DNA of 37,118 bases from a virus (Duplodnaviria; Caudoviricetes). The stretch lies in IMG/VR virus record IMGVR_UViG_3300037483_000661, positions 1 to 37,118 of that record. One strand, 5' to 3'. The stretch's first letter is position 1; each line of letters begins with the position of its first letter. This document shows, one piece after another, positions 23,396 to 33,587 of the stretch. Under the pieces are notes generated by a model. That model had not been told where the DNA came from. It worked only from the letters and a program-made list of their open reading frames with translations, and searched no databases. The translations under genes and the position numbers were made by a program.

Positions 23396-24109
23396 CTACC
23401 TAGGACCCATCGCGACCTTGTCCTGGCCCGTCACGGTCACGCCGGCCGCCAGCAGCAGCGGCCGCACCGCGAGCAACGCCGCAGGGTCATGGTCCCCGAG
23501 CGGGACGTCTCCGGGCTGCATGAGCCCACGCAGCCGGTCGATCTGACCCGCGCGTTCCAGGCTCCGGTGCCCACGGCGCCGGAGGATGACGGCGGCGCGG
23601 CGCAGCCCGCGCTCCGTGAGCGCGGCCGCCCGCATGCGGGGCAGGCCCGGCAGCGCGACCTCCGTGGCCATCGCCGCCGACCAGGCGGCCCGTTCAAACC
23701 ATGGCAGCGGCGCGACACTCCCCATTTGGACGTCAGACAAAGCCTGGTCGCGTCCGTTGCCATGGTCCTGCGTGAGCGCAGCCGAGGGAGACAGCTTCCC
23801 TTTGGGTGTCACGGCGGACGTGGTCTCCTCGTCGGCTACGCGATCCTGATCGGCCTCATGACCCGGCACCCCACAGATGGTTGACAGTTCGAGTCTGGCC
23901 GGGTCCTGAGGCCGCAGGGTCGGCGGGCGTGTCCGGTGCAGATCCCGCTCGACCACGGTGAGGAAGTACTCGCCCAGATCCTCCCAGAGGCGCAGGGCGT
24001 CGGATTGGAGCGCGGCCGCGACGCGGCGCATCGCCGTTCGGAGCGGCAGGCCGCTGCGCGTGCGCTCGGCCACGATCCGCTCGTAGAGGTCCCGCGGGGT
24101 GTACGTCAT
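23396..24109 (-). CDS. Hypothetical protein (237 aa) with three guide units embedded in its middle
   Basis: ATGA-coupled to the TasA-like gene; helical-looking N- and C-terminal parts flank the array-encoded segment. Confidence 0.6.
   Translation of the reverse strand: MTYTPRDLYERIVAERTRSGLPLRTAMRRVAAALQSDALRLWEDLGEYFLTVVERDLHRTRPPTLRPQDPARLELSTICGVPGHEADQDRVADEETTSAVTPKGKLSPSAALTQDHGNGRDQALSDVQMGSVAPLPWFERAAWSAAMATEVALPGLPRMRAAALTERGLRRAAVILRRRGHRSLERAGQIDRLRGLMQPGDVPLGDHDPAALLAVRPLLLAAGVTVTGQDKVAMGPR
23698..23918 (-). ncRNA. TIGR-like stem-loop guide array, downstream block (3 units)
   Basis: Minus strand: CCA-GACTCGAAC-TGTCAACCA-TCTGTGGGG-TG; CCA-CGTCCGCCG-TGACACCCA-AAGGGAAGC-TG; CCA-GGCTTTGTC-TGACGTCCA-AATGGGGAG-TG; each enclosed by its own complementary stem; period 75-76 nt. 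Confidence 0.88.
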
Positions 24110-24855
24110 GCGACCACCCCCACGCCGCTGTAGCGGGGATCGTAGTCATGCGCGATCCGCCAGGCGTCCCGGAGGATCGCCTTCGCGGTGACGCGGAGCG
24201 CGTCCGCGTGGAGGTGCGCCGCCTTCCAATGCGGCCCGCCGAGGTTGGCACAGTCCCATCCGGTCTTCCCCGTCGTGCGCCGCTTGGCATACGCCGCGTC
24301 ACACGTCGCGCAGCCGTCGCCCTCGGCGAGCATGGGGAGGGCGTCGTGCGGGGCACGGCGCGCGAGGTAGACCGCCCGGTACGGGGAGGTGGGCTGCTTC
24401 ATGGTGGGCTCTGCGACCCGCCAGATCCACCACGCTTTGACGATCGCGGAGTAGCGCCGGTCGTCCCGCGCCCCGGCCGGGTGCAGCCCCACGTAGCGCC
24501 AGACGGACGCGACGGTGGGCGACCCCGGGAACTCGGCCAGCGGTATGAGGGGCGGCGTGAGGCTCAGGCATCGGAACGTCGCCACGCCCAGGCCGCGGGT
24601 CCCCTCCACCCAGGCCGCAATCGCGGTGTCCGTCCAGTACTCCGCAATCGCGCGATCGAGGGGGGCTAGGAAGGCGCGCAAGTCGGCGCTGGCGTTGTCT
24701 ATCCAGCGATCGAGCGCCTCGTCCGGCGGGATCTTGCCACGCGCGAACGCCGCGCGGCGATTCTCGAGCGCGCGGAGCACCTGCTCGGCCTGGCGGTAGT
24801 AGGTGGCCAGTTTCCGGGCCTCGAGATAGTCAGCGGGCTCTGGATAGGGACGCAT
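24106..24855 (-). CDS. tasA: TasA-like Nop-domain RNA-binding protein (IS110 C-terminal domain homologue, no nuclease domain; 249 aa)
   Basis: N-terminal coiled coil, GTRGLG helix-hairpin-helix, F...TVASVWRYVGLHP, SPYRAVY, ALRVTAKAILRDAW as in the IS110/IS116 C-terminal (Nop-like) domain; no DEDD RuvC or HNH domain; flanked by CCA/TG-box dual-spacer units. Confidence 0.82.
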   Translation of the reverse strand: MRPYPEPADYLEARKLATYYRQAEQVLRALENRRAAFARGKIPPDEALDRWIDNASADLRAFLAPLDRAIAEYWTDTAIAAWVEGTRGLGVATFRCLSLTPPLIPLAEFPGSPTVASVWRYVGLHPAGARDDRRYSAIVKAWWIWRVAEPTMKQPTSPYRAVYLARRAPHDALPMLAEGDGCATCDAAYAKRRTTGKTGWDCANLGGPHWKAAHLHADALRVTAKAILRDAWRIAHDYDPRYSGVGVVA

Positions 24856-25324
24856 GGCAGCTTACTCCTGGGGTGAGGGGGGGCGGAGGGGGCAGGACAG
24901 GGGGGCCCTGGGTGTCAACTGCCGGTTGGTCCTGCCCCCGTGACTCGTGAGCGGTGTGCGGAGGGGGCAGGACATCCCCTTGGTGGGTGTCAGCGTCACC
25001 ATGGTCCTGCCCCCGTAACCGGTAGAGGTGCGCCGGTCGGCCGGCGCTCGTGAATCGGAGCTCCTGGCACCGTTCGATCAGGCCAGCGTCGACCAGCTCC
25101 TTGAGCCGCCGGCACGCGGTCGCCGCCCGCCAGCTGAACCGCTGGTCGAGCTCGTCGCCGGTCAGCGGCCCGTCGGCCAGGGCCTCGAGGATCCGCGCCC
25201 GGTGCGTGTTGGCACGCTCGGTCATGGACTGCGCCGCCAGGTGCGACGTGCGCGGATCCGTGCGCCGCGCCCGCGGGGCCGGGACCTCGTCGAACAGGGA
25301 GGCTTGTCCGGGCAGGGGGGCCAT
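24830..25324 (-). CDS. Winged-HTH DNA-binding protein whose C-terminal extension is encoded by two guide units
   Basis: RARRTDPRTSHLAA, RILEAL..GPLTGDEL...RRLKELVDAGLIE wHTH; C-terminal GQD..DT..VLPPP repeats come from the array. Confidence 0.75.
   Translation of the reverse strand: MAPLPGQASLFDEVPAPRARRTDPRTSHLAAQSMTERANTHRARILEALADGPLTGDELDQRFSWRAATACRRLKELVDAGLIERCQELRFTSAGRPAHLYRLRGQDHGDADTHQGDVLPPPHTAHESRGQDQPAVDTQGPPVLPPPPPLTPGVSCHASLSRAR
24888..25014 (-). ncRNA. TIGR-like stem-loop guide array, upstream block (2 units)
   Basis: Minus strand GGGGGCAGGA-CCA-TGGTGACGC-TGACACCCA-CCAAGGGGA-TG-TCCTGCCCCC and GGGGGCAGGA-CCA-ACCGGCAGT-TGACACCCA-GGGCCCCCC-TG-TCCTGCCCCC; perfect 10-bp stems, 75-nt period. 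Confidence 0.9.
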
Positions 25325-29558: not shown

Positions 29559-30259
29559 CGGGGGCCTCCATGGTGGGCCTCGAGGAGCTCGCGTGCCGCC
29601 TGGACGTCGGCGAACGCCGCCTCGTTCCCGCCGGCGACGTCGGGATGGGTCCGCTTCACCGCCGCGCGGTAGGCGCGCCGGGCAACGTCGGCGTCGGCCA
29701 GGATCGCGTCGTCGCTCTCGTCGGACTCGCGGGCGAGGATCGCGGCCGCGACCTCCGGGGTCTGCGGCGCGGGTCCCGTCGTCGTGCTGCTGGGGAGCTG
29801 CCGGAACCCGACGTATTGCTCGCCCTTCCCCGTGACGCCATGGCGGTCGACGGCGCGCAGCGCCTCGAGCGAGAGCGCGATCGCGCGGACGTTGGCCTGC
29901 CAGCCGGGATGCGCGAGGTCGAAGTACCCGCCCCCGTCGTAGCGGTCACAGTGGTAGCGCAGCCAGCCGAGTTGCGGGTGCAGGAGGGCGACGGCGACGC
30001 GGGGCGAGGCCGGGCGCGCGTCCGACCGGATCCAGCCGTCCTGCCGGAGGTCGCGGTCACGGAGATCCAGCTCGAGCACGAGCTCGCGGGTGCCCAGGGC
30101 CGCGGCTTCCCGCCGGAGGAGGGTCTCGGTCGCTGTCCAGAACCCGCCCCGCATGCCGGCCCCGAAGGGCGAGCGGACCCGGGACCGCGTGATCGGCCAC
30201 GGCCAGCCGGCGAGGACCGCAGCTCGGACCCGCACGTCAACTGCCTGTAATCGGCTCAC
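29555..30259 (-). CDS. J-domain (DnaJ-like) co-chaperone protein (234 aa)
   Basis: C-terminal AYRAAVKRTHPDVAGG..AAFADVQAA with HPD motif; N-terminal CDRY...NVRAIALSLEALRAVDRHGV; GTG 30259 overlaps the upstream stop. Confidence 0.85.
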   Translation of the reverse strand: MSRLQAVDVRVRAAVLAGWPWPITRSRVRSPFGAGMRGGFWTATETLLRREAAALGTRELVLELDLRDRDLRQDGWIRSDARPASPRVAVALLHPQLGWLRYHCDRYDGGGYFDLAHPGWQANVRAIALSLEALRAVDRHGVTGKGEQYVGFRQLPSSTTTGPAPQTPEVAAAILARESDESDDAILADADVARRAYRAAVKRTHPDVAGGNEAAFADVQAARELLEAHHGGPR

Positions 30260-30939
30260 CCCTGGGCCTCCCGGATTCGCTGAAATCGCTCCATCCAATG
30301 CGCCTCAATTCGGGTCGCCTCGCGCGCCTTGGGTTCCTGGTGTTCGTCCGGAGGACGTCTCGGATTCTCCACATCTCGACATACCTCAGAACCCGATATG
30401 ACTCCGTCACTTCTGGAATCCGAGACCCCCCCCGACCCCCCCCTATGTAGACGCTCCGGCCGGGGGATATTCCGGTCGGCGGAGGGGGTCGGGGGCGGAT
30501 TATCATCCGGCGGGGCGCGGATTATCCTCCGGTCCGGAGGGCCGGCGCGAGCCGGAATATCCTCCGCCCTCCCGGCCGCGATCGCCTGGGCCCGGAGGTG
30601 GACGTCGAGCGCCTGGCCGCATCGCGCGAGCTCGGGCCGGGTCCGGTTGGCCGGCGCGCACCCGGTCGGCAGCGTGGCGTACCAGGTGGAGCCGGCGCGG
30701 CCGTCCACCCGGGGGCCGCGGACCAGGAGCGCGGCCCGCTGCAGGAACCGCTGGTAGCGGGTCACCGTCTCCTCGGCCATGCCGAGCTCGTCGGCGAGGG
30801 TGGCGGACCGCATCGTGCACCCCTCGGTCGCCTGGTCGAGGAGCCGCATCTTGAGCCACACGAGCTTGACGCCGGCGGGGAGCACCCGCGATCGCTCGAT
30901 GATGCCCGCGGCACACGGCGGGAGCCGATCCGGTCTCAC
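30256..30939 (-). CDS. Putative replication initiator (N-terminal HTH, iteron-bearing linker)
   Basis: KLVWLKM...TLADELGMAEETVTRYQRFL..AALL HTH; internal 16-bp repeats as in lambda O-type genes. Confidence 0.7.
   Translation of the reverse strand: MRPDRLPPCAAGIIERSRVLPAGVKLVWLKMRLLDQATEGCTMRSATLADELGMAEETVTRYQRFLQRAALLVRGPRVDGRAGSTWYATLPTGCAPANRTRPELARCGQALDVHLRAQAIAAGRAEDIPARAGPPDRRIIRAPPDDNPPPTPSADRNIPRPERLHRGGSGGVSDSRSDGVISGSEVCRDVENPRRPPDEHQEPKAREATRIEAHWMERFQRIREAQG
30460..30567. repeat. Four iteron-like 16-bp repeats, consensus SCGGAWTATCMYCCGS (putative replication origin)
   Basis: 30495-30510 gcggattatcatccgg, 30517-30532 gcggattatcctccgg, 30552-30567 ccggaatatcctccgc, and inverted 30460-30475 (rc ccggaatatcccccgg). 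Confidence 0.75.
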
Positions 30940-31499: not shown

Positions 31500-31639
31500 G
31501 GGAGCCCCGCGAGCGGCCAGACGAGGAGGAGCACGGCCAGGCCGACGAGCACAAGGATGATCGTTATGTCGAGCGCGATCAGCCCGCGGAGCTGGCGGAC
31601 CCGGCGCTCAAGACGGCGGATCTCCGGGTTGGCGGTCAC
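31496..31639 (-). CDS. Small single-TM protein (47 aa), not in ORF track
   Basis: GTG 31639 to TGA 31496 with 4-nt overlaps at both ends; MTANPEIRRLERRVRQLRGLIALDITIILVLVGLAVLLLVWPLAGLP. Confidence 0.6.
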   Translation of the reverse strand: MTANPEIRRLERRVRQLRGLIALDITIILVLVGLAVLLLVWPLAGLP

Positions 31640-33363
31640 CGCTTCGCCCCTTTCTTCACCGGCCGGCCCTTGGGCGCGGGCTTCGCCGGAGCGGTCTCGA
31701 TCGGGGCGGCGGCGGCCTTGAGCCGGGCGATTGCCTGCTTCGTGAGCTCGGCGGTCGACGGCGCGGCCGTGACGAACCAGGCGGTGAACGTCAGGAGGCT
31801 CGCCGCGGCGGTGACGTCGGTCGGCGTCTCCCGGTCAAACGCCCCGCGGAGGGCCTTGGCCTTGTGGAGCGCGTCGAACCACTCGCCGGCGAGATCTCGC
31901 GGCTGTGCCCACGGGTCGAGGATCCGCTGACGTTTGTCGATGCGCGCGAAACCGTCGTCATACTCGAGGAGCACCCGCCCCAACTGGAAGCCGATCGCGG
32001 CGACGACCCGGGGATCGAGGGCCGCGATGGCGTGCGACGCGATCTCCTGGTGCAGCGCCGGATCCGCCGCGCGCTCGGTAATCAGCGCCTCGATAGCCTC
32101 GCGGATCTTGTCGTCGTCCTCCCAGGGGAGCTGCTTCGGGGCCTTCGTCGCTTTCGCCGGGGACGCGTCGCCCGCGGCCGGCGCCGGCCGGGCCTTCGGG
32201 GCCACGCGCGTGATCGTCGCCCACTCGACCGTCCCCGCCTTCGCGTCGGCGATGTGGATCACCTGGACGGCGCCCTTGGCGCCCGCGGCCGCCTTATTCC
32301 ACTCGCCCCGCTTCGCATCAGCCTTCCCGCGCACGTCGCCCGCCGTCACCTTGGCGAGCTTCACGCCGCGGGCCTTGTGCTCCTGGATCGTGCGCGCGAC
32401 GTGCGCGTCCGTCTTCCCCGCGAAGCAGGCGCGGTCGGTGCACTCGTCCTTCCCGGCGGCGAGCTCCGGGAACAGGGCCGGCTGGAACCCGGTCCGCTTG
32501 GGACACGTGACACAGCTCCCGGCGGCCGGCACCAGCTCCGCGTCGGCGGTCGGGAACGGCGCCGTCTTGAGGTTGAGATGGACCTCCTCCTCGATCCAGC
32601 GCCGCAGCTCGGCCAGTGTGCCGGGCGGCCGGAGGAGGCTGCTGTGCGTGCCGCCCCAGATCGTCGGAACCAGCTTCCGGAGCGGGCGGGTCCCGTCGTC
32701 CTCGCGGAGCCCGCCGCTCCCCAGGCCGTAGACGCCGCCCAGGACGGCCGCCCGTTGGCGATCGGCCGGGACGCGCGCGATCAGCAGGGCGTGCGCGAGC
32801 GGGAGCGTGCCGTCGATGAGCAGCGTGGCCACGTCGGGCCGGAGCTCGCGCAGCTTGAGCCGCTGGTAGACGAACGTGTCCGTCTTGCCCGTCAGGGCGG
32901 CGAGCTCGGCCACGGTGCAGACCGGCCCGCCCCCGTTCCCGTCGAGCAGGGAGGCGAACGCCTGGGCCTCCTCGAGCGGGGTCAGGTTCTCGCGGCCGAG
33001 GTTCGCGAGCGCCACCTCGCGCTTGAACTCCTCGTCGGTCATGGTCCGAATCCGGACCGGGATCAGGTCGCGCTTGGCCCGCTCGGCGGCCCGGAGCCGG
33101 CGGTGCCCGTCGGCGACCTGGTAGACGAGGGTGGGCCCGTCCTGGATCGGGCGGACGAGGAGCGGCTCGCGGACGCCATCCTCGGCGATCGCGTGCGCCA
33201 GCTCGTCGAGCGCGGCTTCGTTCAGGGCGAGGCGGGGATTGAGGCCGGACGCACGCACGGCGGCGAGCGGGACCATGGCGAGACGACCGAGCCGGTCGTC
33301 GGGGTGCGGGTCGGTCATCGGGATCGGCTCCTCGGTGGGGTGGAATGGGGACGGCGGCGTCAT
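31636..33363 (-). CDS. parB: ParB/Spo0J-family protein with long C-terminal extension (start 33363 or 33318)
   Basis: NPR...ELAHAIAEDGVREPLLVRP...VADGHRRLRAA...NLGRENLTPLEEAQAF; HTH; CVTCPKRT...CTDRACF Cys cluster. Confidence 0.92.
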   Translation of the reverse strand: MTPPSPFHPTEEPIPMTDPHPDDRLGRLAMVPLAAVRASGLNPRLALNEAALDELAHAIAEDGVREPLLVRPIQDGPTLVYQVADGHRRLRAAERAKRDLIPVRIRTMTDEEFKREVALANLGRENLTPLEEAQAFASLLDGNGGGPVCTVAELAALTGKTDTFVYQRLKLRELRPDVATLLIDGTLPLAHALLIARVPADRQRAAVLGGVYGLGSGGLREDDGTRPLRKLVPTIWGGTHSSLLRPPGTLAELRRWIEEEVHLNLKTAPFPTADAELVPAAGSCVTCPKRTGFQPALFPELAAGKDECTDRACFAGKTDAHVARTIQEHKARGVKLAKVTAGDVRGKADAKRGEWNKAAAGAKGAVQVIHIADAKAGTVEWATITRVAPKARPAPAAGDASPAKATKAPKQLPWEDDDKIREAIEALITERAADPALHQEIASHAIAALDPRVVAAIGFQLGRVLLEYDDGFARIDKRQRILDPWAQPRDLAGEWFDALHKAKALRGAFDRETPTDVTAAASLLTFTAWFVTAAPSTAELTKQAIARLKAAAAPIETAPAKPAPKGRPVKKGAKR

Positions 33364-33587
33364 CGCGGTAGCTCCACGACGAACCCGCCGGTCTGCAACA
33401 CCTCGAGGCCCTCGAGCGCCAGGGTGATGCGGCGCTCGGCGGCGGCCCACGCGGCCGCGACCTCCGGCGGCACGCCGAACACCTCGCGGTGCAGCCGGAG
33501 CACCATGAGACCGTTGCGGAGGTGCGCGACCGGCGAATCGGCCGGATAGACCGTGTCGTGCGTGAGCGGCCAGGTGAGGGCCATCAT
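33360..33587 (-). CDS. Hypothetical protein (75 aa)
   Basis: ATGA-coupled chain, AGGAG RBS. Confidence 0.55.
   Translation of the reverse strand: MMALTWPLTHDTVYPADSPVAHLRNGLMVLRLHREVFGVPPEVAAAWAAAERRITLALEGLEVLQTGGFVVELPR

Follow-up and report, generated by a model that had tools for sequence, protein, structure and literature searches.

What would a phage do with an RNA guide that spells part of a tRNA-Leu gene? The question is raised by one of five guide units around a tas gene in the window analysed here, a stretch of 37,118 nt that is a whole virus record with a 100% completeness rating, 123-bp direct terminal repeats, and a GC content of about 72%. The genome encodes a lambda-type terminase, portal, capsid, tape measure, and ParB-like protein (Pfam), the last being a long protein at 31636-33450 on the minus strand, many genes away from tasA. 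No tRNA genes are found in the phage genome, and its original description as integrase-less holds: the tyrosine/serine integrase families PF00589, PF00239, and PF07508 are absent at E values up to 1. Among the 37 ORFs scanned with Pfam and the 30 scanned with PHROGs, a part of the 192 mechanical ORFs, we find no Cas effector or Tn7-like transposase genes. Two sediment metagenome runs (X1 and X2) contain at least half of the phage's sampled words, and X1, identical to the window over 23826-25070, may be its source.

Two further observations concern the genome at large. In addition to the ParB-like gene, positions 30256-30939 (minus strand) probably encode a helix-turn-helix replication initiator, judged by eye, in this integrase-less genome, whose lifestyle may be lytic or plasmid-like. 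At 101-760, 66-bp periodic repeats correspond to a 22-amino-acid repeat protein on the minus strand that runs across the terminal repeat.

A predicted nuclease-free Tas protein and its guide units

The features of the locus, all on the minus strand, are as follows.

24973..25004, minus strand: tigRNA unit 1 core, upstream of tasA, with a stem nearly identical to that of unit 2
24898..24929, minus strand: tigRNA unit 2 core, upstream of tasA
24106..24855, minus strand: tasA, 249 aa, predicted coiled-coil and Nop-domain protein without a nuclease domain, with a clade-conserved Cys-x2-Cys insertion
23396..24109, minus strand: 237-aa ORF overlapping the tasA stop (ATGA), with units 3 to 5 in frame inside it
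23867..23898, minus strand: tigRNA unit 3 core, the tRNA-matching guide, CCA-spacer A-TG-4-nt loop-CCA-spacer B-TG, a core of the TaTasR tigRNA1 type (Table S3, PMC12045711)
23887..23895, minus strand: unit 3 spacer A, whose complement corresponds to tRNA G53 to C61 (last T-stem base, T-loop, and C61)
23869..23877, minus strand: unit 3 spacer B, sense to the tRNA-Leu variable arm's 3' end and T-stem 49-52
23851..23914, minus strand: unit 3 closing stem, about 16 bp with bulges, folding z = -3.35
23792..23823, minus strand: tigRNA unit 4 core, in its own stem
23716..23747, minus strand: tigRNA unit 5 core, in its own stem

The tasA product has no Pfam match and no Pfam nuclease hit. A profile of 26 tasA homologs finds only TasR (9mty, E = 8.7e-20) and TasH (21kl, E = 2.1e-16) in the PDB, and the TasH alignment to the phage protein begins past the TasH HNH domain. 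The AlphaFold model is helical (pLDDT 91.1, pTM 0.88), and its ten best fold matches are TasH and TasR chains. IS110-family recombinases are weaker fold matches (E = 0.055 to 0.13), and the protein also matches PHROG 4285, annotated "transposase"; the DEDD RuvC-fold N-terminal domain that marks IS110 is absent by Pfam, model, and fold search. We assign the protein to TasA because 249 aa leave no room for a nuclease domain, and on profile and model evidence it is a predicted Nop-only protein with neither RuvC nor HNH. It has no match among the 9,182 rows listed in the available part of Table S1 of PMC12045711. The insertion of its clade, Cys-x2-Cys ... Asp-Cys ... His (C182, C185, C202, and H209), which some relatives lack, is possibly a metal site.

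Five units of the form CCA-N9-TG-N4-CCA-N9-TG lie within 0.4 kb of tasA and on its strand, two upstream and three downstream; over 200 base shuffles, this 32-nt pattern arises 0.035 times on average and at most once. Each unit is closed by its own stem, those of units 1 and 2 being nearly the same and those of units 3 to 5 differing, and 32-nt units are likewise present in relatives' Tas loci. As in stem-loop TIGR-TasA systems, variable palindromic stems take the place of edge repeats, and two spacers within the expected 8 to 12 nt lie between boxes beside tas; the pairing of both spacers with opposite strands of one contiguous site is seen at the sequence level for unit 3 only. The minus-strand letters of unit 3, within its hairpin, read CCA-GACTCGAAC-TG-TCAA-CCA-TCTGTGGGG-TG. 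CTT (CUU) is absent within 30 nt on either side of the five cores; a CUU at the stem base is described as frequent, not obligatory, in stem-loop TIGR-TasA. Searches for an Rfam family, sigma-70 promoter, or terminator gave none. By its boxes and fold, unit 3 is a real stem-loop TIGR guide gene with a predicted guide RNA, and the type of system, stem-loop TIGR-TasA, is already known. At one related locus (L003:5765-5796, minus strand), one unit lies on the strand opposite to that locus's other units.

The 237-aa ORF is probably a real gene, with a coding-like GC3 of 0.92 and 0.90 in its flanks but a GC3 of 0.69, unlike coding sequence, in the array part, and no family was found for it with Pfam, PHROGs, or further searches. 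Three guide hairpins hence sit in frame within a probable non-tas gene; published intragenic guides lie inside tas.

The unit 3 guide matches tRNA-Leu genes

For TaTasR tigRNA1, the target consists of spacer A and then spacer B in reverse complement (Table S3, PMC12045711), and we built the unit 3 18-mer by this published join, which the original prediction had also used. It has at least 100 exact matches in GTDB genome contigs, in organisms of many phyla, and 4 in IMG/VR, all of them in phage tRNA genes (Arg, Ser twice, and Gln) on viral sequences with a GC content of 33 to 58%, against about 72% in this phage. Among the 100 GTDB matches listed, the T-stem closes in 96 and the remaining 4 are unrelated DNA. 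ARAGORN, run with a relaxed threshold, calls a tRNA at 86 of these 100 loci: 81 as Leu, in which every one of the six anticodon types encountered is represented, 2 as Gln, and one each as Met, Lys, and undetermined. The 14 loci without a call comprise the 4 of unrelated DNA, 3 cut by a contig or locus end, and, by eye, 7 copies of only the 3' part of a tRNA; in 2 further called loci the 5' part is non-tRNA by eye. In the ARAGORN drawing, with standard tRNA numbering, spacer B spans stem 49-52 together with the last part of the variable arm, and G53-C61 falls to the complement of spacer A. The original prediction that the joined spacers spell the 3' part of a tRNA-Leu gene is thus borne out.

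Its further statement that the T-loop motif forms only across the spacer junction is incorrect. The complement of spacer A contains the entire G53-C61 motif, and what crosses the junction is just the GGGGG stem strand and the adjacency. Since spacer A alone carries the motif, all four possible joins are formally T-arm-like, so the four geometries were compared in one genome sample, at up to 1 mismatch in 201 genomes of Myxococcota (a phylum chosen because it held exact matches; the centre genome holds one of them). The published join matches 22 of the 201 genomes, and the three wrong geometries 0, 1, and 0. tRNA-Leu genes account for 21 of its 23 one-mismatch places, and the differing base is target position 1 or 3; TasR is reported to tolerate edge mismatches better. 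No exact 18-mer occurs in the 200 sampled genomes besides the centre genome, and exact matches are rare per genome. The unit had been put forward as independent support for a tandem opposite-strand rule, and the published join alone does find the tRNA; the rule, however, was already published (PMC12045711), so unit 3 confirms it on natural sequence and is not a discovery of it.

How far could chance produce such a match? The motif GGTTCRANTC occurs in random 18-mers at 1.3e-4. The upper bound for a random match to any tRNA 18-mer held by at least 85 genes is 2.2e-4 per guide, giving 1.1e-3 for five guides and 3.3e-3 with gaps of 0 to 2 nt, a bound that assumes 50 tRNAs per genome and stands before scan-wide selection. 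tRNA genes make up about 0.1% of a bacterial genome, and a guide copied from real DNA would be expected to hit one about 1e-3 of the time. Set against 2.2e-4, this favors a true origin at least fivefold, and probably by much more because the chance bound is loose. The finding was picked post hoc from a very large scan, for which reason we keep a modest share of probability on chance. Origin of the unit 3 guide from the 3' half of a tRNA-Leu gene is highly probable, and the tRNA-Leu site is a strong candidate for its natural target.

The other guides give no comparable signal. Units 1, 2, and 5 have no exact match in IMG/VR. The unit 4 target matches three IMG/VR contigs, all in one low-complexity G-rich tract, and these matches were judged to be chance. 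Unit 5 matches 2 of the 201 Myxococcota genomes and unit 1 matches 12, where the 7 places examined out of 13 all lie in unrelated reading frames, so hit counts alone mislead; unit 3 stands out in that its matches are one homologous gene. No credible targets were found for units 1, 2, 4, and 5 by exact search of IMG/VR and, for units 1 and 5, in Myxococcota, and no guide targets the phage genome itself at up to 2 mismatches with gaps of 0 to 2 nt. In relatives, the T-loop motif is present in 0 of 79 distinct guide-like units in any geometry (these units come from 39 of 97 loci, and some may be false and others missed); judging by these units, tRNA aiming is not a family trait. A run of at least 4 G or C is seen in 4 of the 5 reconstructed targets, against 14% of window 18-mers (P = 0.002, post hoc), and in 8 of 79 targets of relatives. 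Units 1 and 5 read like ribosome-binding regions, for which reason guide targets may lean to noncoding DNA.

The site lies within attachment repeats

The original prediction also linked the match to tRNA attachment cores, and this link is seen in other genomes. G461 carries a tyrosine integrase directly after an intact tRNA-Leu(CAA), and an identical copy of a 36-bp repeat that includes the 18-mer is found 57.7 kb away. In G261, a 38-bp repeat is present in copies 13,641 bp apart, with no integrase found between them. A 3'-only tRNA copy lies 0.65 kb from an integrase match in G239, weak, below-cut-off integrase matches lie within 0.8 kb of the site in G247 and G256, and no integrase match is found near the site in G221. 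The repeats place the 18-mer within attachment repeats of integrated elements, the genomes being those of unrelated bacteria, and free forms of such elements would then carry the site in their attP. Attachment at a T-loop is known, for example in mycobacteriophage Ms6 (PMC1762012). In the alphaproteobacterial loci L028, L099, and L116, similar non-tRNA sequence precedes a 3'-only tRNA-Leu copy, which suggests one family of integrated elements.

The phage itself has neither of the two marks of a temperate phage that integrates at tRNA-Leu, an integrase and a copy of the tRNA 3' end as attP, the contiguous 18-mer being absent from its genome. The 18-mer matches come from other genomes, and the host searches gave no host-linked match. 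Terminase relatives among isolate phages reach at most 37% identity; in bacterial genomes the terminase is found in 0 of 5 and, at 37 to 45% identity, in 2 of 201. Protein searches with the phage proteins indicate no useful host taxon. With the Tas profile, neither a set of 5 genomes nor one of 10 gives a match, and just 1 genome among the 201 Myxococcota has one, a weak match of 414 aa. Compared with the genomes of 50 of the 100 target-bearing loci, 19.9 kb of the window gives short GC-rich matches only.

Spacers differ between near-identical strains

A sister strain is represented in run X2 by a 1,464-bp contig (depth 8.4) that covers 23493-24956 with 48 substitutions and 2 gaps relative to the window. 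Among the 43 substitutions listed, the six spacers of units 3 to 5 hold 35, loops hold 3, and stems or the positions beside them hold 4, with the last one at 23966; both gaps are in unit 3, within spacer A. Unit 2, the entire tasA gene, the boxes (CCA and TG), and nearly all stem bases are unchanged. Over 23696-23898, all six spacers of units 3 to 5 are replaced, and by eye the replaced guides contain no T-loop motif. The window's own version of unit 3 is seen again in a 151-nt piece of run X3 (23803-23953, 1 difference, depth 2.2), and its version of units 4 and 5 in a small piece of run X8 (0 differences in 201 nt). These comparisons, with the downstream swap resting on the one assembled X2 contig, hint at in-place swapping of spacers within unchanged boxes between near-identical strains.

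Spacer acquisition is, together with natural guide targets, a stated open question for TIGR-Tas (PMC12045711 and other TIGR-TasA work), and a clue to it comes from two phage strains that are nearly identical apart from six spacers. They constrain it in that replacement happens in place and affects the two spacers of a unit, and in that the unit 3 pair spells one contiguous natural sequence. The unit 3 locus is a useful snapshot of spacer replacement; its function at the tRNA site is inferred. In the upstream array (24909-24974), short contigs of X2 and X4 join 24974 to 24909 plus 9 other letters, which points to another or an extra upstream unit.

Possible roles of the tRNA-matching guide

In the mechanism that we propose, the unit 3 spacers would have been copied from the 18-bp site of tRNA-Leu and the attachment repeats, most plausibly from the attP that a co-infecting temperate phage or island carries. 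Following published work on other Tas proteins, guides would be processed into single tigRNAs, and in a Tas dimer each spacer would pair with one DNA strand. The TasA-guide complex would sit, without cutting, on the variable arm-T-loop part of the tRNA-Leu gene and on its attP, attL, and attR copies; attP and attB would share the 18-mer, and occupancy of both would hinder the rival's integrase. TasA is described as binding DNA tightly and repressing sterically without cutting, and as repressing when aimed inside a gene, including a chromosomal one (bioRxiv 10.64898/2026.09.09.750476). That unit 3 and the predicted TasA complex occlude the attachment site against rival integrating elements is our tentative reading, to which we give a probability of about 0.45. 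We consider it the best one because the phage has no integrase, needs the host's tRNA-Leu, and swaps guides quickly: without an integrase or tRNA gene, it would have no need of the site and no reason to starve itself of tRNA-Leu. Guide turnover between near-identical strains is as expected in a conflict between elements. The wider model is more doubtful, namely that TIGR-TasA is an adaptive, cut-free blocker of landing sites in which an 18-bp site is copied, split, and half-inverted into an existing hairpin by in-place replacement, so that guides occupy tRNA attachment cores against the integration and excision of rivals.

Several other explanations have to be weighed against occlusion of the attachment site. 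A tRNA-derived spacer might simply have been sampled from cell DNA, with tRNA genes at about 0.1% of it, and bring no selected benefit. Such incidental capture would fit the loss of the guide from the X2 sister strain and its absence from the 79 units of relatives, and the G/C-run, noncoding-like lean of the targets (4/5 versus 14%) would raise the tRNA share; the recurrence of the window's version in X3 speaks against it, as does the consideration that a roadblock on a host tRNA gene would hardly be neutral, and we think it unlikely. Comparably unlikely is a transcriptional effect, in which RNA polymerase is blocked by TasA bound within a tRNA-Leu gene, either the host's or that of a rival phage with tRNA genes. 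Repression by TasA inside genes is published (bioRxiv 10.64898/2026.09.09.750476), the exact site is present in four phage tRNA genes, and the majority of 18-mer matches are intact genes, but a phage without tRNA genes depends on the host's tRNA-Leu, and the matched phages differ strongly in GC content. From sequence, blocked integration and a repressed tRNA gene cannot be told apart.

A chance origin, with the real target an unsequenced noncoding site and the tRNA look-alike a product of G-run bias and scan-wide selection, gains from numbers: about 83,000 tigRNAs have been catalogued, among which a rate of 1.3e-4 yields roughly ten T-loop motifs by chance, and the guides here are rich in G-runs and have no host link. 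The other 8 bases also follow real tRNA-Leu genes, however, to 18/18 and in the published geometry only, and the expected rate for a guide from real DNA, about 1e-3, lies above the chance bound of 2e-4, which leaves chance improbable. The original prediction had further considered that the protein tethers this genome to the chromosome, and TasA, perhaps with ParB, could anchor it to a chromosomal tRNA gene or aid its integration. The genome does lack an integrase and carry a ParB-like gene, and Faure et al. describe TasA-ParB operons and speculate on an aid to integrases. The idea is poorly supported here: the strain with an identical tasA has replaced the unit 3 guide, parB lies 6.8 kb off and does not adjoin tasA, and at up to 2 mismatches none of the guides finds a site in the phage genome itself, making tethering very improbable. 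We give the least credence of all to a snoRNA-like action in which spacer A pairs with the T-loop of the tRNA-Leu RNA. In its favor are the complementarity of spacer A to tRNA G53-C61 and the Nop domains shared with box C/D snoRNPs, but spacer B, which has the sense of the tRNA, can fit a target only if it is double-stranded, and TasR is reported to be without action on RNA.

Relation to known guide systems

The closest systems are the stem-loop TIGR-TasA systems PlTasA, BlTasA, and MbTasA (PMC12045711; bioRxiv 10.64898/2026.09.09.750476 and 10.64898/2026.08.11.744272), described as sharing a Nop-only protein, palindromic stems in which CCA and TG boxes flank two 9-nt spacers, units on both sides of tas, and targeting by A plus reverse-complement B. 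Relative to those descriptions, the phage system differs in its candidate natural target, in three units in frame in a downstream gene in place of tas, in spacers swapped inside unchanged boxes between strains, and in having no CUU within 30 nt of the cores. TaTIGR-TasR and SpTIGR-TasH (PDB 9mty, 21kl, and 9w04) share the fold, and TaTIGR also the 32-nt core, yet they have nuclease domains and dual-repeat arrays, and the phage system has neither. Unlike TasA-TasParB operons, the locus does not have parB in an operon with tasA. IS110 bridge-RNA recombinases have a related Nop-like RNA-binding domain; the phage system is without the DEDD domain or a single target-plus-donor RNA and has an array of separate guides instead.

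Functional parallels are found among mobile elements. In the delocalized crRNA homing of CAST I-F and V-K (PMC11656645), as described there, a mobile element's short guide likewise directs a noncutting complex to a conserved site by a tRNA or other housekeeping gene; the phage, in contrast, has no Cas/Tn7 genes in the ORFs scanned and no integrase, and its guide is strain specific where that of CAST is fixed. Viral CRISPR mini-arrays and plasmid type IV and V-M CRISPR (PMC11656645, PMC12045711) are similar in that a few element-borne guides serve competition between elements, partly without cleavage, but protein and guide are unrelated, and the targets described for them are genes that belong to rival genomes instead of a tRNA attachment core that is shared.

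We found no publication reporting tRNA or attachment-site targets of TIGR guides (preprint supplements and TIGRSafari being outside this scope); in the available text of both preprints the word "tRNA" occurs 0 times, and in that of PMC12045711 in the references only. The tRNA-Leu site matched by unit 3 is a rare candidate natural target for TIGR-TasA systems. Matching at 18/18 and belonging to a named class of genes that is universal, this candidate makes binding, repression, and blocking of integration testable in a laboratory strain, and RNA-guided occlusion of attachment sites, if true, would add a new way for mobile elements to compete. Finally, two isolated actinophages, Morrissey (Gordonia; L135:2304-2335) and Rich (Mycobacterium; L136:3208-3239), each carry a Tas-like gene with a single stem-loop unit and provide cultured models with known hosts for Tas-like genes.
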